Positions 6,052 to 21,938 of a DNA stretch of 32,000 nucleotides are shown here, in pieces (position 1 is the stretch's first letter; the number at the start of each line of letters is the position of its first letter). Below the pieces are notes generated by a model, which did no database searches, was not told where the DNA came from, and worked only from the letters and a program-made list of their open reading frames with translations. The translations under genes and the position numbers were made by a program. The stretch covers positions 30,001-62,000 of the forward strand of contig CAKTSY010000006.1 in NCBI GenBank assembly GCA_934613415.1, in the 5' to 3' direction. The stretch comes from an uncultured Opitutales bacterium. Lineage in GTDB: Bacteria > Verrucomicrobiota > Verrucomicrobiia > Opitutales > Intestinicryptomonadaceae.

Positions 6052-6480
6052 TTATATGATTTCTACGCCTTCGCGTACTACGAAACGGCACCTTAGAGGA
6101 ACCTTGGCATCGGCCAAGCGCATAGCTTCGCGTGCAAGCGTCGGAGAAACACCGGCTATTTCGAATAGGATTGTGCCGGGCTTTACAACCGCGCACCAGT
6201 ATTCTACCGCGCCCTTACCTTTACCCATACGGGTTTCGGCGGGTTTCTTTGTAACGGACTTTTGCGGGAATACTCTCATCCACATTTTGCCTTTACGCTT
6301 TAAGTGCCTGTTAATGGCGACACGGGCAGCTTCTAACTGCTGAGCCGAGCATTTGCCGCGTTCCAAAGACTGCAACGCGAAGTCGCCGAAAGAAATATAG
6401 TCGCCGCCCTTGGCCAAGCCGCGGATACGACCTTTTTGTACCTTGCGGTACTTGGTTTTTGCTGGAAGTAGATTTGCCAT
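6052..6480 (-). CDS. rplP: 50S ribosomal protein L16
   Basis: 142 aa containing [18 protein letters not shown] and [21 protein letters not shown]. Confidence 0.96.
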
Positions 6481-6503
6481 CTTAAAACTCCTGTCTTATA
6501 GAA

Positions 6504-7142
6504 TTATAGTACGTCCTCGGATTTAAGGCACAACCAAACTTTTACGCCGATTTTGCCGTAGAGGGTGTGGGCTTCGGTGAAGCCGTAGTCTATGTTTTCG
6601 CGGAGAGTCTGAAGGGGAATTTTACCCTTTCTCTGCCATTCTGTGCGCGCAATTTCTGCGCCGCCAAGACGGCCGGAAAGTTGAACTTTAATGCCTTCGG
6701 CACCCATTGCCAACGAGGTCTGTATGGCCTTCTTGATGGCCCTGCGGAAAGATACGCGGCGTTCGAGCTGCAAAGCAATGCTTTCTGCTACGAGGAATGC
6801 AACCAAATCGGGTTTCTTGATTTCCTGTATGTCGAGCATAATGTCTTTGCCGAGGAACTTCGAAAGCTTTGCTTTCAATTGGTCGAGCGATGCGCCTTTT
6901 TGACCGATTACAACACCGGGGCGCGCAGTGAATATCTTAACGCGTACGCGTGCACCCGCACGTTCGATGAATACTCTCGAAACCGACGCCGACTTCAATT
7001 CGGGATATTCGCGCAAAAATTCGCGGATTTTATAGTCTTCGGCTAAGAATTTAGCATAGTCGCCCTTGTTGGCATACCAGCGCGAATCCCAGTCGCGACG
7101 TACTGCAAGGCGAAAACCTCTTGGATTTACTTTTTGTCCCAT
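6504..7142 (-). CDS. rpsC: 30S ribosomal protein S3
   Basis: 212 aa starting MGQKVNPRGFRL, with a KH-domain region VVIGQKGASLDQLK. Confidence 0.96.
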   Translation of the reverse strand: MGQKVNPRGFRLAVRRDWDSRWYANKGDYAKFLAEDYKIREFLREYPELKSASVSRVFIERAGARVRVKIFTARPGVVIGQKGASLDQLKAKLSKFLGKDIMLDIQEIKKPDLVAFLVAESIALQLERRVSFRRAIKKAIQTSLAMGAEGIKVQLSGRLGGAEIARTEWQRKGKIPLQTLRENIDYGFTEAHTLYGKIGVKVWLCLKSEDVL

Positions 7143-7496: not shown

Positions 7497-7513
7497 CTTT
7501 CTACTTTCTTAAA

Positions 7514-7846
7514 TTATTTATTTATTAGTCTGAGCTCAAAGGTTTCGTTGCCCGCAATGTTGTAGTCGCCCAAAAGAAGGGCTACGCTCGAATTTTTTGC
7601 ACATTCTATAACAACTGCGGTCAATAAAACTTTGTCGTTTTTCTTTACATCGCAAAAGGCACCTATGCGGTAGTTCGAAGACGAACCTTTGTCGAGCAAA
7701 ACCAAAGCGTTTTCGGCGTCGGTTTTAACGATGTTTGCCCTGCGCGATACTGCCTTTGAAGCCCAAGTCGGCATAGCCGCAAAACATATTTGGCCCAAGC
7801 ATATAAATGCCGCCGCCGATACGATATGTTTTGCGAATTTTGCCAT
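7514..7846 (-). CDS. hypothetical small exported protein (110 aa) embedded between rpsS and rplV
   Basis: It is the only long ORF in the 367-nt rpsS-rplV gap, on the same strand and 17 nt from each neighbour. The N-terminus looks like a Sec signal peptide: MAKFAKH-IVSAAAFICLGQICFAA-MPTWA|SK. The mature part (~80 aa) has a beta-strand-like hydrophobic alternation and 2 Cys. I recognise no family. Confidence 0.6.
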   Translation of the reverse strand: MAKFAKHIVSAAAFICLGQICFAAMPTWASKAVSRRANIVKTDAENALVLLDKGSSSNYRIGAFCDVKKNDKVLLTAVVIECAKNSSVALLLGDYNIAGNETFELRLINK

Positions 7847-7863
7847 ATACTAAAGCCCTTTAA

Positions 7864-8142
7864 TTACTGAACAGCCTTCTTTGTGTGGGGTTGGTGGCCT
7901 TTGAAGAAACGCGTGGGAGCGAATTCGCCAAGCCTGTGGCCAACCATATTTTCGGTTACATATACGGGCAAGAATTTGCGGCCGTTATGAACGTTGAAGT
8001 TAAGACCGACAAAGTCGGGTGTTACCAAAGAGCGGCGAGACCAAGTCTGAATGGGCTTGTGCGAATTTGTTTTATGCGCTTCGTCCACCTTTTTCTGCAA
8101 CTTGGGATCAACGTATGGTCCTTTTTTAATTGAGCGTGCCAT
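7864..8142 (-). CDS. rpsS: 30S ribosomal protein S19
   Basis: 92 aa containing [12 protein letters not shown] and [29 protein letters not shown]. Confidence 0.97.
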
Positions 8143-10584: not shown

Positions 10585-10596
10585 TTTTTCTAAGAG

Positions 10597-10641
10597 GCAG
10601 GCGGTAATTCGGCTTTTTAAGCCAATTCACTTTATACCTGC
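10597..10641 (-). promoter_or_regulatory. composite stem-loop in the rplC 5' leader (candidate autoregulatory r-protein leader)
   Basis: Outer stem is 10597-10601 (GCAGG) paired with 10637-10641 (CCTGC). Inner stem pairs 10606-10609 and 10611-10615 with 10619-10627, with C10610 bulged and a 3-nt loop. The structure ends 12 nt upstream of the rplC ATG, which has no Shine-Dalgarno sequence. Pairings were checked by hand only. Confidence 0.35.
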
Positions 10642-10756
10642 GTTAGTGTTAATATTGTTTGTTTATGCTTTTTCTCTAATGAAGAAAGTTCTAAATACTG
10701 CCCTTTTAATATTTAAAGTCAACAACTTTTTAAAAAATTTTTAACTTTTTTATAAG

Positions 10757-10910
10757 TTTTTTGCAAAAATTTTTTAATTTTTTGCAAAAATCGGGCGTTT
10801 TTTGTAAAAAAATTTCGCCGATGGCAAAAAAATTTTAGTTTTTTTACAAAAAAAGCGTCTTTTTGGCGTCTTTTTATAAAATTTTTTACAATTTAAGAAA
10901 AAATTTTGCC
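10757..10910. repeat. phased array of T-run/GC/A-run dyads (consensus TTTTTTGCAAAAA), period ~21 bp
   Basis: Dyad centres fall at 10763/4 and 10784/5 (identical 13-mers TTTTTTGCAAAAA), 10804/5 (TTTTTTGTAAAAAAA), 10824/5 (half site GGCAAAAAAA), 10846/7 (TTTTTTTACAAAAAAA), 10866/7 (half site TTTTTGGC), 10888/9 (TTTTTTACAA) and 10908/9 (TTTTGCC). Spacings are 21, 20, 20, 22, 20, 22 and 20 bp. Confidence 0.8.
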
Positions 10911-11056
10911 CTTTTACCCCGCCCCAAGAAAAATTTTTAAGAATTAACTGCATTTTTTATCTTTATTGATAAAAATTTTTAAGCGGCGCACTTGTTTGAA
11001 AAATGCAATTTTTGCAGTTTTGGCAAAAAACTTTACCGCAATTTGCCAACATATGC

Positions 11057-11094
11057 AAAAAAAACGCCCCTTTTTGCAAAAAGCAAAAGGGGCG
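11057..11094 (-). terminator. intrinsic terminator downstream of the sugar kinase gene (symmetric, possibly bidirectional)
   Basis: Stem CGCCCCTTTTTGC (11065-11077) pairs with GCAAAAGGGGCG (11083-11094). The A8 run at 11057-11064 becomes a U-run after the hairpin on the minus-strand RNA. It lies 53 nt past the stop codon at 11147. Confidence 0.75.
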
Positions 11095-11146
11095 CGGAGT
11101 GTTGTTTTTTATATACTATATATATGATGAGAAAGTTTTGCGAAAA

Positions 11147-12238
11147 TTAGCGGTCTACGCGGGCCGAACCGCCGCCTGCCAACTTTTCCACTTCCTTTAG
11201 GCGAGCCATAGAAGTATCGCCGGGGGTTGTCATTGCCAATGCGCCGTGGGCTGCGCCAAAGTTTACCGCCTTTTGGGGGTCGCCCAATTCCATAAGCCCG
11301 TAAACAAAGCCGCTAGCAAAAGAATCGCCGCCACCTACTCTGTCGAAAATCTCCAATCCTGGGAATTTTTTTGATTCGTAGAACTTGCCGTCTTTCCAGC
11401 AAACTGCCGACCAATCGTTAATGGTTGCGGTTTTTACGTCTCTTAAAGTTGTGGCAACCGCCTTAAAATTGGGATATGCCTTTACAACCGTTTCAATCAT
11501 TTTCTTGAAAGATTCAACCTGAATGTTGCCGATTTCTTTGGTAACGCCTTCAACCTCAAAGCCCAAGCAGGCGGTAAAGTCTTCTTCATTGCCAATCATA
11601 ACGTCTACATACTGGGCAATTTGCTTGTTTACAGCCCTGCACTTTTCCAAACCGCCAATGCTCTTCCACAACGAAGGCCTGTAGTTTAGGTCGTACGAAA
11701 CAATTGTACCGTATTCTTTTGCCTTTTTAACGGCTTGTATAACCAAATTATACGAATTTTCGCTTAAAGATGCAAAAATGCCGCCAGTGTGCAACCAGCG
11801 AACGCCCAATTTGCCGAAAATATAGTCGAAGTCGAAATCGCCCACCTTCATTTGCGAAGCCGCCGACAAACCTCTGTCGGAGCAGCCAACCGCGCCTCTA
11901 ACGCCGTAGCCGCGCTCGGTAAAATTCAAGCCGTTTCTTACAGTGCGTCCTATGCCGTCGAAGGGAACCCACTTTATAAGTGAAGTGTCTACCCCGCCTT
12001 GACATACAAAATCTTCAAGCAAATAGCCAACTTCGTTTTCGGCAAAAGCGGTAAGCACGCCTGCCCTAAGGCCAAAACACTTTTTAAGACCTCTGGCTAC
12101 GTTGTATTCGCCGCCGCCTTCCCATACTTTAAACGAGCGTGCGGTTCTAATTCTGCCTTCGCCTGGGTCTAACCTAAGCATAATTTCGCCAAGCGACAAT
12201 ATATCGTAGGCGCAGTCTTTTTTGTCTTTAATATTCAT
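11147..12238 (-). CDS. kdgK: PfkB-family sugar kinase, probably 2-dehydro-3-deoxygluconokinase
   Basis: 363 aa. N-terminal GEIMLRLDP and the C-terminal PfkB signature DRVGGGDSFASGFVYGL followed by GAAHGALAMTTPGD. The family assignment is firm. The KdgK substrate call comes from remembered similarity only. Confidence 0.6.
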   Translation of the reverse strand: MNIKDKKDCAYDILSLGEIMLRLDPGEGRIRTARSFKVWEGGGEYNVARGLKKCFGLRAGVLTAFAENEVGYLLEDFVCQGGVDTSLIKWVPFDGIGRTVRNGLNFTERGYGVRGAVGCSDRGLSAASQMKVGDFDFDYIFGKLGVRWLHTGGIFASLSENSYNLVIQAVKKAKEYGTIVSYDLNYRPSLWKSIGGLEKCRAVNKQIAQYVDVMIGNEEDFTACLGFEVEGVTKEIGNIQVESFKKMIETVVKAYPNFKAVATTLRDVKTATINDWSAVCWKDGKFYESKKFPGLEIFDRVGGGDSFASGFVYGLMELGDPQKAVNFGAAHGALAMTTPGDTSMARLKEVEKLAGGGSARVDR

Positions 12239-15299: not shown

Positions 15300-18200
15300 C
15301 TATTTTTCGTATGTTTTAAGCAAAATCTTTCCTACATTGCCGAAAGAAATTAGGCTGTAGTTGTCTGTCCAGTCGCCCGGAACCTTGTTTTGGGTTGTCC
15401 AGGCCTTTAAGGACTTTCTTCTGTCGCCCATTTGGTGGCTTTGGAAGGAATGCGGCCATGCGCCGCGGGGCTCGCCTATTATGTTGTGGTGCGGACCCAT
15501 AAGGTTGCGCAGCGTCGGGTAGCATTCAACCGCAACGGTTTCGTTGCCGGTTTTTACATACTTTGTTATGTCAAGCTCGTAAGGAGCGTCGTAGATAACA
15601 CCCGCAAGAACGTCGTTTACGCGAATTGCAACAACCGCGCAATCGGTTTTGCCCAAGGCTATTGCAAAGCGTTTGTTTGCCGCCGGCTTTACATTGCCCA
15701 GTTTTACCAAATAGGTAAATGCCCCCGTGTAGAAGGGATAGCCTTTATAGGTTATATCGCAAACTTCGGTTACGGGTTTTTGGTCGCAAATATATAGCGA
15801 ATCTGCCTTTGCCCTTGTAACTGCGGGGGCGGGCAAGCCCATTTTCAACAATGTTTTGTCGAAGGGATTTTCGCCCGTAGCTTCGGCATTAACCGCAAAA
15901 TTGCCTATTATATATACCGACTCTATTTCCGTACCATACCTCTTAAATGCGGGTTTAGCCAAGCCTCTTATGCCGCACTCGAATTTGTCGAATTCAAGTT
16001 CCAGCACATTGTCGCCTTCTACAACTTCTTTTGTTATGTTTACGGGCAACCATCTAAAGTCGCGCCAGAAATTTGCACCTTCGTACTTAACGGGAGTGCC
16101 GTTTACCCTTATTTCGGAGCAGCGCAAGGGGTTTTCTATTACAGCCGCCATTGGCAGACCTTTTTTAAGACCTTTTACCTTAAACGGATACCTTATTGTC
16201 AACTTGCCGTTGTAGCGAATTTGGTTTAAATAGTTTTGAATTTCTATTACGGGAACTGCATATTCGCCGCTTTCGCCCGCGTTGTTTGTTTCGTAAAAGG
16301 CGTAGTCTAGCGTAAGGCTGTTCCATTCGTTGGGGCCTGCCGCCAAAACCTTAAGCTCTTTTTGCGAAACAAGCGTTTCGGGCTTTTCTTTTTTGGCTTT
16401 TGGCGAATCTTTAGAGAGCATTATGAGCTTTGTCTGCACGCTTTGCAAATTAAGCGGCATTACAAAACTGCCCGATTTCCTTTCCGCAAAAAACTCGGTT
16501 ATTTTGCCCGTTTTTATATCCAGCTCTTTTATGCTGTTGTATACGCCGCCGAACTTTGCCACGCCTTCGAACGCCGAATTTCTGTCGAGATTGGCAATCA
16601 GTATAATTCTGGAGCCGTCGGACAAATCCCTTGCGTGCGACCACACCAAGTCTTTGTTGCCGCTTTTTGTTTCTATTGCAACTTCTCTTTCCAATACGGG
16701 AATAATTCTTTTCGACAATTCAAAAGCCTCAAGCTTTTCGACGTTTTTCATCAACTCCATAATTCTGGGGTTTTCTTCGCCGTCTATCATAAGCGGGCAT
16801 TCGTTGCCGGCAAACAAAAGCAAGCCGCCCGTTTTTTGGAATTTTTCAAGCATTTGTACTGTAGACATTCTTAACGTGCACGACGACGGAATTACCACAA
16901 TAGAGTAGGTGCTTTGCCCTACCGATATTGTGCCTTTGCCCGCCGAACCGTCTTCGGCCATAATTTGTTCGCTTGCATAGTCGAAGCCTATGTTGTTTGC
17001 CAAAAGGTTGTCTGTTACCTGGTTTAAGCCGTCTTCGTAGGCTTTATATCTTTTATTCGTGCCCGCCCTATCCCAAACGGGGGCGTTGTTGTCGCAAGGT
17101 TGTATAAATTTTGCCCGAACCGACTCCATTGGGTGTATTACCAAAACTTTTGCGCAATATTTTCCCTGCGCCATTGCATAGCAAAGCCTTGCAAGGGGAA
17201 TGTCTAAAGTGCTGTTTAAGCCCCACCACGGCTGCTGATAGTATATGCTTTGCGGATAGTCTCTTTTGCGGCAGCCCGCCATAGTATATAAAGACAAATG
17301 CGGGTTTATTAAGTTTACGCCAAGCAAAACCTGCTCTACCGCAACCCATTTTCGGTCTTCAAAGCTTAGGGCAGCGCCTCCTATGCCGTACATTTCCGAC
17401 AGCATTCTCTTTTTGCCGAATTGGTTTACAACACTTTGGCACTGCTTTGCCGCGGGTCTTTCGCCAATTTGTCTTAAAAGGTGGTCTATGCCGGGAATTT
17501 GGTTGTGCCTGTAATAGGGCATAACGTCGCCCATAGCCAACTGGCTGCCCGAAAGCGGAAACTCCTGCATAAAGTGCCCCGTAAGCGAAATGTTGTGCTG
17601 CCCGCACCAATCGGCAATCTGCTTGGGATACGCTTCTTCGAACATCTTGTTCAGGGTTCTGTAGTACTTTACCCTAAAGCTTTCGGCTCCCTTTGTGTCG
17701 GTAAACAGTTTGTAGAAATGGGGAATCGGATCGAAACCGTATTCGTTTTTAAAAGTTTCTACCAAATTAGACGAATAGGCAATGCCGCCGCCTATGGTTG
17801 CACTGCGGTCCGACATACTCGGTTCGTCGGTAAATTCGGCAACTATAACCTTGCCGTAGTATTCGGAATACCTTTTATAATAGCTTTCGTAGGCGTCGGT
17901 TATAAATTTGCCAACGGCAGCCTTGTTCATTGTGTCAATATAGGTTGCCCCGTTGTAGCGGGCGTTGCCCATGGGGGCTATATATTTATATACCTGAATG
18001 CCGTCGTGCGGTTCGCCAATAGGCTCGCAGTGTTTGGGCACTCTTTCGCCGACTTTTCGCGCCACCAAAGATTTTTGGCGGTAGTCTTCGTTTGCCGCGG
18101 GAACAGTGCCGCCGCTATATCCGCTCGGCCAGCCGTCTTCGTCGTATAGCCAAACTTTTAGCCCCGTTTCAACACAGGCGTCTATTGCCGCGCTTACGCC

Positions 18201-18488
18201 CTTAAACCAGTCGTCGGAAAGATATTCGGTAATAAGCCCTTCGCGGCTATGCACAAAGGCGCCACCCCAACCGCCGCGCTTAATTTCGTTTACCTGACGC
18301 TTAATTTCGTCGGGCTGCATAACTTCGTTCCAGCTCCAAAAGGGCACTGCCTTAAATTCTACGGGAACGTCTGCAAAATCCTTTTCGTTAAAAGGCTGGG
18401 CTTCTTCGGCGGCAAGTTGCTGCCCCGACACAAACGCCCCAACGAAGGCTGCAACTGCAAAAAATTTATTGGTAAATGTGGTTTTCAT
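15300..18488 (-). CDS. large secreted glycoside-hydrolase-like protein (CAZy family not assignable by eye)
   Basis: 1062 aa with signal peptide MKTTFTNKFFAVAAFVGAFVSGQQLAA. I remember the N-terminal block PFWSWNE..IKRGGWGGAFVHSREGL..WLYDEDGWPSGYSGG from large bacterial glycosidases often annotated as GH2-sugar-binding or GH106-like. This rests on memory, not on a search. Confidence 0.5.
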   Translation of the reverse strand: MKTTFTNKFFAVAAFVGAFVSGQQLAAEEAQPFNEKDFADVPVEFKAVPFWSWNEVMQPDEIKRQVNEIKRGGWGGAFVHSREGLITEYLSDDWFKGVSAAIDACVETGLKVWLYDEDGWPSGYSGGTVPAANEDYRQKSLVARKVGERVPKHCEPIGEPHDGIQVYKYIAPMGNARYNGATYIDTMNKAAVGKFITDAYESYYKRYSEYYGKVIVAEFTDEPSMSDRSATIGGGIAYSSNLVETFKNEYGFDPIPHFYKLFTDTKGAESFRVKYYRTLNKMFEEAYPKQIADWCGQHNISLTGHFMQEFPLSGSQLAMGDVMPYYRHNQIPGIDHLLRQIGERPAAKQCQSVVNQFGKKRMLSEMYGIGGAALSFEDRKWVAVEQVLLGVNLINPHLSLYTMAGCRKRDYPQSIYYQQPWWGLNSTLDIPLARLCYAMAQGKYCAKVLVIHPMESVRAKFIQPCDNNAPVWDRAGTNKRYKAYEDGLNQVTDNLLANNIGFDYASEQIMAEDGSAGKGTISVGQSTYSIVVIPSSCTLRMSTVQMLEKFQKTGGLLLFAGNECPLMIDGEENPRIMELMKNVEKLEAFELSKRIIPVLEREVAIETKSGNKDLVWSHARDLSDGSRIILIANLDRNSAFEGVAKFGGVYNSIKELDIKTGKITEFFAERKSGSFVMPLNLQSVQTKLIMLSKDSPKAKKEKPETLVSQKELKVLAAGPNEWNSLTLDYAFYETNNAGESGEYAVPVIEIQNYLNQIRYNGKLTIRYPFKVKGLKKGLPMAAVIENPLRCSEIRVNGTPVKYEGANFWRDFRWLPVNITKEVVEGDNVLELEFDKFECGIRGLAKPAFKRYGTEIESVYIIGNFAVNAEATGENPFDKTLLKMGLPAPAVTRAKADSLYICDQKPVTEVCDITYKGYPFYTGAFTYLVKLGNVKPAANKRFAIALGKTDCAVVAIRVNDVLAGVIYDAPYELDITKYVKTGNETVAVECYPTLRNLMGPHHNIIGEPRGAWPHSFQSHQMGDRRKSLKAWTTQNKVPGDWTDNYSLISFGNVGKILLKTYEK

Positions 18489-18701: not shown

Positions 18702-21700
18702 ATGCCAAAACGCACAGATATTAAGTCTATTTTAATAGTAGGTTCGGGCCCTATAGTTATAGGCCAGGCCTGCGAATTTGATTACTCGGGGAGCCAAGCC
18801 TGCAAAGCACTAAGAGAGGAAGGCTACAAGGTTATATTGGTAAATTCCAATCCCGCCACGATTATGACCGACCCGCAAATGGCCGATGTTACATACATAG
18901 AGCCGCTTGTACCGGAAATTCTCGAAAAGATTATTGCGAAAGAGCGTCCCGACGCCCTATTGCCCACACTTGGCGGCCAAACAGGCTTAAATTTGTCGCT
19001 AAAGCTGCACCAGCTGGGCATTTTAAAGAAATATAATGTAGAGCTTATCGGTGCCGACGCCGAAGCAATCGAAAAGGGTGAAGACCGCGAAAAGTTCCGC
19101 GAAGCCATGATAAAAATCGGCTTGGACGTTCCCCTAAGCAAGGTTGTACACTCGCTAAAAGAAGCTCTTGAATGGGCCGACTCGCACAAGAAATACCCCC
19201 TAATTATCAGACCCAGCTTTACATTGGGCGGCACGGGCGGCGGCATTGCCTACAATAGAGACGAGTTCGAAAGAATGGCAGCCTTCGGCCTAAGCGCGTC
19301 TCCTGCAAACGAAATTTTGGTTGAAGAATCGCTTTTGGGCTGGAAAGAGCTTGAAATGGAAGTTATGCGCGACTGCAAAGACCAGTGCATAGCAATCTGC
19401 TCTATCGAAAACTTCGACCCCATGGGCGTACACACGGGCGACTCGATAACAATTGCCCCGGCGTTAACTCTCACAAACAAAGAATACCAGCTTATGCGCG
19501 ACGCCTCGTTTGCCGTAATAAGGGAAATTGGCGTAAAGACGGGCGGCTCGAACATTCAGTTTGCGCTTAACCCCAAAGACGGGCGAATGATTATCATAGA
19601 AATGAACCCCCGTGTTTCGCGCTCTTCGGCGTTGGCCTCGAAGGCTACGGGCTTCCCGATTGCGAAATTCGCCGCAAAATTGGCGGTTGGCTATTCTTTG
19701 GACGAATTAAGAAACGACATTACAAAGGAAACCCCCGCAAGTTTCGAACCGGCAATCGACTATGTTGTGGCAAAAGTTCCGCGCTTTGCTTTCGAAAAAT
19801 TTGCGGGGGCCGACAACACCCTTACAAGCTCGATGAAGAGCGTAGGCGAAGTTATGTCTATTGGCCGCAGCTTTAAAGAATGCTTGCAAAAGGCTTTGCG
19901 TTCACTGGAAATCGGGGCGCGCGGCCTGGGCGGCGGCGGCAAATTTGGCGGCAGCGAAATTACCGATATGTCGGTAATAAGCAAAGGCCTTGTAAGGCCC
20001 ACTGCCGAAAGAATTTTCTATATGCGCTACGCCATTTTGGCGGGTATGACAACCGAGCAAATCAGCGACCTTACGAAGATAGACCCCTGGTTTGTACGCG
20101 AAGTCGAGGGCATTGTTCGCATAGAGCAAACTTTGGCAAAAGAGGGGCTTTTGGGCCTTAACAAAGACCTTTTGGAAAAGGCGAAAAAGGCTGGCTTTAC
20201 CGATTTGCAGATTGCAACAATTTGCAACACAAAAATCAGAAACATTAAAAAGTTGCGCGAAGATTTCGGCATAAACACGGTATACCGCTTGGTAGACACC
20301 TGCGCCGCCGAATTCGAAGCGTTTACCCCCTACTACTATTCTTCGTACGGGGCAGAAAACGAGCTTAAGCCCAGCAACAAAAAGAAGATTATGATTATAG
20401 GCGGCGGCCCCAACAGAATAGGTCAGGGCATAGAGTTCGACTACTGTTGCGTGCATGCGTCTTTTGCGCTTAGAGAAGCCGGCTACGAAACCATAATGGT
20501 AAATTCCAATCCCGAAACGGTTTCGACCGACTACGACACTTCCGACAAGCTTTTCTTTGAACCGCTAACGCTTGAAGACGTGCTTGAAGTTTACAAACAA
20601 AACAAGTGCGACGGCGCGATAGTTCAGTTCGGGGGGCAAACTCCGCTAAACTTGGCGGCAGAATTGCAGGAAAACGGCGTAAACATAATAGGAACTTCGC
20701 CCGAATCTATAGACGCCGCCGAAGACCGCGAAATTTTCAAACACATAATAGAAAAGCTGCACTTAAGGCAGCCCGTAAACGCAACGGCAACCACCCCCGA
20801 AGAAGCCTACAAGCTTGCGGGGCAAATTGGGTTCCCGATATTGCTCAGACCCTCGTTCGTATTGGGCGGCAGGGGTATGTTTATAGTATACGGCATGGAC
20901 GACATGAAGAAGGTTATAAGAGACGCCTTCGAAGCCGCTCCTGGCAAACCCGTATTGCTCGACAAATTCCTTGAAGACGCCATAGAGCTTGACGTAGACG
21001 CAATTTCCGACGGCGAAACAACCGTTATTGGCGGCATGCTAGAGCATATCGAATATGCTGGCGTGCACTCGGGCGACGCTGCAATGGTATTGCCCCCGCA
21101 CACACTTTCCGAAAACGTGCTAAACGAAGTGCGCAAGGCAACCTACGACTTGGCAAAAGAGCTTAAAGTTATAGGGTTAATGAACATTCAGTTCGCAATC
21201 AAAAAGGGCGAAGTTTACATCTTGGAAGTAAACCCGAGGGCTTCGAGAACGGTTCCGTTTACATCGAAAGCCATAGGCGTGCCGCTGGCAAAGATTGCAG
21301 CGCGCGTAATGGCGGGCGAAAAGCTGAAAGACTTGGGCTTTACAAAAGAAGTGAAAATCCCCTACATAGCCGTAAAGGAAAGTGTATTTCCCTTTGTGCG
21401 CTTTAGCGGAGCAACCATTATGCTAAGCCCCGAAATGAGGTCTACAGGCGAAGTTATGGGCCTAGACAAAGACCTGGGAACAGCATTTGCAAAGAGCCAA
21501 ATTGCGGCTCAGCCCGGCTTGCCGAGTTCGGGCAACGTGTTCTTGTCGGTAAAAGACCACGACAAGGAAATGGCGGTTGAAATCGCAAAATCGCTGGATA
21601 AATTGGGCTTTAAGATTTTCTCGACGGCGGGCACGGCCAAGCTTTTGGCCGACAACGGCATTCCCGTAACGAGAACCTACAAGCTTAACGAAGGGGCTCG

Positions 21701-21938
21701 TCCGAATGTTATAGACATGATTAAGAACGACGAAATGTCGCTTATAATCAACACGCCCTCGGGAATGTATCCTTTGCTCGACGAAAACCTTATTAGGCAG
21801 GAAGCCCTTTTAAAGAAGGTTTGCATTATAACCACAATGATGGGAGCGTATGCAGCAATTAAGGGCATAGAAGCTATGCGAAGCAAAGACCTAAGCGTGA
21901 AATCGCTTCAGGAATATATGGAACAGTTAAAGAAATAA
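18702..21938 (+). CDS. carB: carbamoyl-phosphate synthase large subunit
   Basis: 1078 aa starting [30 protein letters not shown]. Shows the duplicated ATP-grasp halves (second repeat [25 protein letters not shown]) and an MGS-like C-terminus. Confidence 0.97.

Follow-up and report, generated by a model that had tools for sequence, protein, structure and literature searches.

The rpsS-rplV junction in the 32,000-nucleotide stretch of Opitutales DNA analyzed here (hereafter the window) holds a genuine gene for a 110-amino acid protein. We read it as a functional gene fixed at this junction, whose product would be a Sec-exported, non-enzymatic binding or scaffold barrel of the periplasm with an abundance that follows ribosome synthesis, and we put the probability of this reading as a whole at roughly 0.6. 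The string rplB-rpsS-rplV-rpsC is among the most invariant gene orders in prokaryotes, and a conserved gene for a predicted exported protein that is wedged into it and kept across two classes of one phylum is unexpected.

The ribosomal protein cluster in the window lies on the minus strand and runs rplC, rplD, rplW, rplB, rpsS, the 110-amino acid ORF, rplV, rpsC, rplP, and on to secY. The upstream neighbor of the ORF is rpsS (S19; 7864-8142; Pfam PF00203 Ribosomal_S19, E 1.6e-34) and the downstream neighbor is rplV (L22; 7161-7496; Pfam PF00237 Ribosomal_L22, E 9.6e-30), both on the minus strand. An initial reading made from the DNA alone (the sequence-only reading) had described the 367-nt interval between them (7497-7863) as filled by a same-strand ORF of 110 codons with 17-nt spacers, and the coordinates confirm this. 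In the ORF list and the sequence, the CDS occupies 7514-7846 with its stop codon included (ATG at 7846, TAA at 7516-7514), and the translation quoted at that time matches the ORF exactly. The spacer between rpsS and the ORF (7847-7863, minus strand) contains a Shine-Dalgarno-like AAGGG at 7860-7856, 9 nt 5′ of the ATG, and the spacer between the ORF and rplV (7497-7513, minus strand) is the purine-rich AAGAAAGTAGAAAG. As the sequence-only reading had claimed, no flanking transcription signals are present: scanning the minus strand around the ORF yielded neither a sigma-70-like promoter nor an intrinsic-terminator-like site. Rfam gave zero matches across the whole window, and an RNA element in the spacer was rejected on this basis. 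The composition of the ORF (G+C 44.1%, GC3 47.7%) falls within the range of 15 neighboring ribosomal protein genes (G+C 43-52%, GC3 43-57%; rpsS G+C 47.7%), which bears out the earlier view that it is not a recent foreign insertion; recent horizontal insertion was rejected on the native composition together with the ancient position. From the 17-nt spacers, the lack of a promoter or terminator, and the native composition, we infer that the gene is co-transcribed with the ribosomal protein genes in this Opitutales organism.

The surroundings of the cluster have features of their own. The S10 gene rpsJ is not found 5′ of rplC in the window; a 562-nt spacer with a G+C of 24-26% takes its place at 10585-11146. 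A strong terminator hairpin, CCCCTTTTGC-TTTTT-GCAAAAGGGG with a T-run behind it, lies at ∼11050-11090 and follows the minus-strand gene of a PfkB-type kinase (11147-12238). The spacer also has numerous short repeats that are rich in A/T and similar to TTTTTGCAAAAAA, and a box near 10722 with the promoter-like sequence TTGACT. With a terminator for the kinase gene before it and a box of the TTGACT type, this spacer is probably where the S10-type operon of the window starts. S10 lies directly upstream of L3 in Verrucomicrobiales loci (L083) and in Akkermansia. In the genomes that carry the family member P0073 (L083/L084, ∼6218-6651) and in A. muciniphila (Amuc_0292-0293), the cluster is interrupted behind rplN (L14), where a gene that is unrelated and partly divergent comes next; the S10 and spc operons are therefore non-contiguous there, and the cluster of the window runs to secY. 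Downstream of the operon region, the window also has two divergent ORFs of >1,000 amino acids, one at 15300-18488 on the minus strand (1062 amino acids) and one at 18702-21938 on the plus strand (1078 amino acids).

Several lines of comparative evidence establish that the ORF is a real protein-coding gene and exclude a chance ORF or an RNA element. The same protein, identical or 89-99% identical, is found as 14 variants on many contigs, and the sole annotation among these close variants is "hypothetical protein [Opitutales bacterium]". Most of the amino acid differences between them lie within the hydrophobic N-terminal region, outside of which the protein is almost invariant. Purifying selection among these closest variants is only moderate when judged by pN/pS (dN/dS), which is 0.4-0.5 on few substitutions, against 0-0.06 for rpsS and rplV. 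Selection on deeper relatives is clear, with a dN/dS of 0.27 for a pair of short-form relatives (L017/L018) and a median of 0.15 for the long form described below (398 pairs, 75 sequences). When we searched with the single sequence by a word-indexed method, only the gene's own 90% cluster was returned; the relatives came from an exhaustive HMMER search and from a genome survey via rpsS. By HMMER, eight remote homologues 109-115 amino acids long were recovered (E 8e-14 to 6e-4, 32-37% identity), all with a start of the MAxFGK type, a hydrophobic stretch, the motif Ala-x-Pro-x-Trp, and the C-terminal domain in common. Reading frame, MAKFGK-like start, signal, and barrel are kept in homologues down to ∼20% identity, and this conservation at the protein level across two classes, Opitutae and Verrucomicrobiae, supports the coding gene that the sequence-only reading had proposed.

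To place the gene in its phylum, we measured the rpsS-rplV gap in 80 GTDB genomes fetched via rpsS, of which 21 were Verrucomicrobiota and 59 belonged to other phyla. A same-strand ORF matching one family profile was found at the junction in 12 of the 21 Verrucomicrobiota loci (gap 366-806 nt) and at no junction of the 59 loci outside this phylum. In the remaining nine loci of the phylum, which are largely from Opitutaceae, the gap is short (10-149 nt) and does not contain the gene. An intact junction in relatives had been named at the outset as evidence against a conserved insert, and on this point the relatives divide, nine having the short junction and 12 a conserved homologous ORF. Some spacers outside the family are enlarged as well (L046 of Zixibacteria, 295 nt; L037, L038, and L078, ∼150 nt), and these hold no family-matching ORF of at least 35 amino acids.

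The family occurs in two main architectures. The short form (105-127 amino acids) consists of a signal peptide and a ∼75-amino acid barrel and is found in Opitutales, Puniceicoccaceae (Puniceicoccales), and some Opitutaceae; one short-form cluster, present on 506 contigs, contains CDE84837.1 from "Coraliomargarita sp. CAG:312" of the human gut. The long form (237-248 amino acids) has a signal, ∼130 amino acids of coiled coil, and the same barrel, and is found in Verrucomicrobiales (Rubritalea, Roseibacillus, and others). It comprises >1,057 clusters at 90% identity, which are named "hypothetical protein" or mislabeled "FliL". For instance, many long forms (P0087-P0200) carry the JGI name "flagellar basal body-associated protein FliL", with PF06810 as their precomputed Pfam entry; these public labels are likely misannotations caused by the coiled coil. 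We also observed a third architecture in a 111-amino acid protein from a 768-nt ENA contig (P0066), which joins a different N-terminal hydrophobic segment to the barrel with no coiled coil. This segment nearly matches DUF7935 (26.3 bits, cut-off 27), and the protein may be a membrane-anchored variant.

Starting from homologues, seven of seven look-ups led to a gene flanked by S19 and L22. The long-form alignment as query retrieved 80 metagenome loci; 70 of them have S19 upstream and L22 downstream, the other 10 end at a contig edge, and there are no exceptions. The sequence-only reading had called the product lineage-specific; this was too narrow, as the family spans Opitutae and Verrucomicrobiae and is always at the rpsS-rplV junction. 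In a rough NJ tree of S19 and L22, all long forms fall into one clade and the short forms lie in Opitutae. Opitutaceae that do not have the gene nest in this tree beside two that retain it, which is consistent with a gene that was present ancestrally and lost later; the gene was apparently lost in most Opitutaceae. Six loci of Opitutaceae and related Opitutia (L010, L011, L014, L015, L049, and L073) have junction gaps of 30-106 nt without an insert, and their tree neighbors L012 and L024 keep the gene; absence at these junctions indicates repeated or lineage-wide loss. Since the gene is missing from the junction in nine of 21 loci, it must be dispensable there or have moved elsewhere.

We define the family by homology in the C-terminal barrel (profile E at most 1e-9), an N-terminal signal, and a same-strand gene between rpsS and rplV. 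The window protein matches the family profile with an E of 1.3e-28 and aligns over the barrel with both forms. Searches of Pfam, NCBIfam, and PDB sequences with single members and with profiles returned only sub-threshold matches or coiled-coil noise, and our literature searches found no description of the junction gene, of S10-operon insertions in Verrucomicrobia, of the Akkermansia muciniphila gene Amuc_0299 (AMUC_RS01705), or of its probable UniProt entry B2UMT5. The earlier impression of an unrecognized family and an undescribed insert was therefore correct as far as Pfam and NCBIfam models and the publications found are concerned. Identity with a published PVC signature protein was rejected, as the papers on that protein describe no ribosomal protein operon gene and our family is absent from Planctomycetes loci. 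These intercalated, putatively exported barrel proteins are a new verrucomicrobial family, which falls short of every membership threshold of FlgT, TsaP, and MreC.

The N terminus of the protein has the features of a Sec signal. We scored signal features by a heuristic scan on 20 full-length family members and found a predicted tripartite Sec signal in all of them, in agreement with the sequence-only reading: N-terminal positive charge (absent in one member), a strongly hydrophobic stretch of 12-30 residues without charge, and then small-x-small motifs. The Sec/SPase I pattern used for comparison consists of an n-region with positive charge, an h-region of some 7-15 or more hydrophobic residues, and small amino acids at -3 and -1 relative to cleavage. 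In the window protein, the n-region has two Lys, the uncharged run covers residues 7-30 (24 residues), and the best 10-residue window has a KD of 2.69. The predicted signal peptide, MAKFAKHIVSAAAFICLGQICFA, spans codons 1-23 (7778-7846, minus strand) and would be cleaved by SPase I between CFA and AMP. Cleavage had been placed after A29, between MPTWA and SK; however, a C/A/S-x-A motif is conserved across the short forms immediately before the Pro-x-Trp linker, so that cleavage after A23 is the likelier prediction. None of the members contains a canonical lipobox ([LVI][ASTVI][GAS]C); the corresponding segments of the window protein are AFIC and GQIC, and only one long form has a weak AGSC. 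Export is thus a well-supported prediction from heuristic signal features.

The same region could instead act as an uncleaved signal-anchor, which would keep the barrel fixed on the outside of the cytoplasmic membrane instead of releasing it. The uncharged run of 24 residues in the window protein would suit such an anchor, and so would the different, longer N-terminal hydrophobic segment of P0066 with its near match to DUF7935 (26.3 bits, cut-off 27). MreC, which is closest to the family by architecture, is itself membrane-anchored. However, the small-x-Ala motif that follows the h-region is family-wide, and the h-region IVSAAAFICLGQICFAA is short and broken by Gly-Gln, as is typical of a cleaved signal and not of a transmembrane helix. 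We therefore consider a permanent anchor unlikely.

With regard to the remainder of the protein, AlphaFold2 gave a poor model from the single sequence (mean pLDDT 53.8), which rose to 79.5 with a 28-sequence alignment. In the latter model, residues 35-110 have a pLDDT of ∼85-95, and residues 6-18 form a low-pLDDT N-terminal helix that is followed by a linker. The C-terminal domain is confidently predicted as a six-stranded β-barrel, with modeled strands at residues 34-43, 48-51, 64-69, 72-82, 87-92, and 102-108; it occupies codons 34-108 (7523-7747, minus strand) and is the conserved core of the family. Only two residues, G54 and G62, are invariant across the family and no polar or catalytic residue is conserved, which suggests a structural or binding domain rather than an enzyme. 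The two Cys that had been noted in the mature part are present as C65 and C82 (C16 and C21 lie in the signal region), but they do not form a conserved disulfide pair, as C82 is Ser in three of the 14 close variants. A C65-C82 disulfide is accordingly not obligatory. The C65 position is buried and conserved; short forms have Cys here, and long forms have an aromatic residue, Phe or Tyr.

Comparison of the model with known structures gave uniformly weak Foldseek matches (E ∼0.004-0.02), and the barrel is a generic fold. The best whole-domain matches in the PDB were the N-terminal crown barrels of V/A- and F1-ATPases (TM 0.50-0.55), which superpose with an rmsd of 2.4-2.8 over 75-79 columns (best match: E 4e-3, TM 0.55, rmsd 2.5, 77 columns). 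Such crown barrels, from the alpha/beta (A/B) subunits of F1/V1/A1-ATPases, pack side by side into rings. They are, however, cytoplasmic and always fused to an ATPase domain, whereas the window protein has 110 amino acids in all and shows no sequence similarity to ATP-synt_ab_N. Common ancestry with them is unsupported. Profile comparison by hhalign gave E 0.25 for AtpD and E 0.14 for AtpA, the latter in the wrong region. Because the best structural matches are to cytoplasmic ATPase crown domains, the fold itself says little about function.

Sub-threshold sequence signals fall on periplasmic barrels instead: FlgT_C (E 0.06), the NCBIfam model of MreC (E 0.003), and TsaP (E 0.5). The domains of FlgT_C (PF16538; 3w1e, 8z5n) and the FlgT-like domains of TsaP (3jc8) are, like the family barrel, small periplasmic β-barrels that depend on a signal peptide, and the sub-threshold HMM matches lie on a shared motif, hydrophobic-x-(V/L)-(L/I)-(D/N)-x-G-x-x-x-G-(hydrophobic)-x-x-G. 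FlgT and TsaP domains are non-enzymatic ring or scaffold modules. The relatives P0066 and P0073, however, reach only ∼14 bits against FlgT_C (E 0.06), far short of the gathering threshold of 27, and the window protein has no match. Structural comparison with FlgT (3w1e, E 0.0097, TMq 0.45; 8z5n_0 of the LPHT ring, E 0.011, TMq 0.53) was no better than with the ATPase crown barrels. The window protein also has a single domain, whereas FlgT has three and TsaP adds LysM, and the family gene resides in a ribosomal protein operon with no flagellar or pilus context. MreC (NF010520, 7eft) resembles the long form in its order of hydrophobic N terminus, coiled coil, and β-barrel, and there is a weak alignment of the family barrel with the first barrel of MreC (E 0.003; hhalign with E. 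coli MreC, E 0.007, probability 5.7%; Foldseek with 7eft, E 0.019). Yet P0073 alone matches the MreC model, with 16.8 bits where the cut-off of NF010520 is 343. In addition, the family carries a single barrel where MreC has two, its signal looks cleavable whereas MreC has a transmembrane anchor, its gene lies outside an mreBCD operon, and the short form of the window does not have the coiled coil.

In a more specific proposal, a periplasmic barrel of the MreC/FlgT type, produced at a constant ratio to the ribosomal proteins, would signal growth rate to the cell envelope by attaching to a peptidoglycan synthase or to some other machine of the envelope. By such binding, envelope growth would be set by ribosome output. 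We hold this version to be unlikely.

Another reading places the function at the ribosome. The product could be an extra ribosomal protein or assembly factor that stays in the cytoplasm, its N terminus serving some purpose other than export. This would fit the location of the gene in the middle of the S10 operon, a barrel fold that is common to translation-protein barrels (P0066 has a weak match to EF-Tu domain 2, E 0.005), and the mildly basic mature part of the window protein (pI 8.9). However, the signal features are found in 20 of 20 members, long forms included, and mature pI values across the family range from 4.5 to 9.2 and are not consistently basic. The gene also evolves far faster than rpsS and rplV and is missing from many relatives. 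Comparison by hhalign with the 15 ribosomal proteins of the window was negative (best E 0.019 over 12 columns), and neither Pfam nor NCBIfam gave a ribosomal protein match. Taken together with the spread in pI, this agrees with the sequence-only reading that the product is not a ribosomal protein, and we consider a cytoplasmic ribosome factor very unlikely. Origin by duplication of a neighboring ribosomal protein barrel was likewise rejected on the negative hhalign comparisons with these 15 proteins.

Alternatively, the gene might act in cis. Insertion of its signal peptide into the membrane during translation (transertion) would hold the S10-operon mRNA, together with ribosomal proteins still being made, at the membrane, with the barrel being secondary. 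In favor of such a role, a signal-peptide ORF is found at a conserved position midway along a polycistronic mRNA of very high expression, and ribosome-bearing internal membranes are reported for some PVC bacteria (PMC4452313). On the other hand, the barrel is the best conserved part of the protein and is under purifying selection, and the signal region is the most variable. Moderately hydrophobic Sec signals moreover are mostly exported post-translationally. A cis-acting role thus appears highly improbable. Lastly, the notion of a non-functional ORF, that is, a chance frame or an RNA regulatory element in the spacer, could draw on the lack of a known domain and on the one 90%-identity cluster of the single-sequence search, but it is effectively refuted already by the comparative data, given the frame, start motif, signal, and barrel kept to ∼20% identity, a confident fold that depends on the alignment, dN/dS values of 0.15-0.27 in relatives, and no Rfam match.

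We return to the reading that we prefer, an exported barrel produced in step with ribosomes. In this scheme, the gene would be part of the S10-operon polycistronic mRNA and would be translated from its own weak Shine-Dalgarno site. Transcription on the ribosomal protein mRNA would cause its output to follow ribosome synthesis and growth rate. The product would be exported via Sec and its signal of ∼23 amino acids cleaved after A23, leaving a short linker with the conserved Pro-x-Trp and the ∼75-amino acid barrel. This barrel would then most likely serve as a non-enzymatic scaffold of the periplasm that binds proteins or the envelope, as the barrels of FlgT/TsaP and MreC do, and the ∼130-amino acid coiled-coil stalk of the long form would oligomerize the barrel or add reach.

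Published expression data from Akkermansia muciniphila are consistent with the transcriptional part of this scheme. In A. muciniphila, the "hypothetical protein" Amuc_0299 is encoded between rplV (Amuc_0298) and rpsS (Amuc_0300) (PMC11480725). Given this position, and since the long form is at the junction in all sampled Verrucomicrobiales, Amuc_0299 probably belongs to the family, an assignment made from position and taxonomy and not from its sequence. In the supplementary files of that study (PMC11480725), Amuc_0299 has a log2FC of 2.07 compared with 2.05, 2.59, and 2.09 for its neighbors. Across 21 samples of raw RNA-seq counts, it correlates with rplB (r 0.998), rpsC (r 0.997), and rplV (r 0.990), and its ratio to rplB is steady at 0.58-0.72 (PMC11480725). 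Amuc_0299 was absent from the supplements of Akkermansia proteome papers and of a comparative genomics/proteomics paper (PMC9415379).

The family combines two known kinds, the passenger gene of a ribosomal protein operon and the periplasmic β-barrel module. As in the spc operon (secY, adk, map, infA) and the alpha operon (rpoA), a non-ribosomal gene lies inside a ribosomal protein operon. Those genes are co-transcribed with ribosomal protein genes, so their supply follows ribosome production, and secY is an example of an export-related function coupled in this way. Unlike these passengers, which are at operon ends and are nearly universal, the gene described here interrupts the rplB-rpsS-rplV-rpsC string midway, is confined to a single phylum, and encodes a predicted exported protein. 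What is new is a large family without a Pfam or NCBIfam model, with two architectures and lineage-specific losses.

The family provides a clean phylogenetic and synteny marker for Verrucomicrobiota and a natural case of a secreted protein translated from the middle of a ribosomal protein mRNA. The arrangement implies selection for making this predicted envelope protein in concert with ribosomes. Akkermansia muciniphila is genetically tractable and medically relevant, and because the family probably includes Amuc_0299, which is transcribed at ribosomal protein levels, the question is directly testable in this organism. If the barrel does bind an envelope machine and convey growth rate to it, a version of events that we have called unlikely, the gene would be a direct operon-encoded link from ribosome synthesis to cell-surface expansion in Verrucomicrobiota, including Akkermansia.
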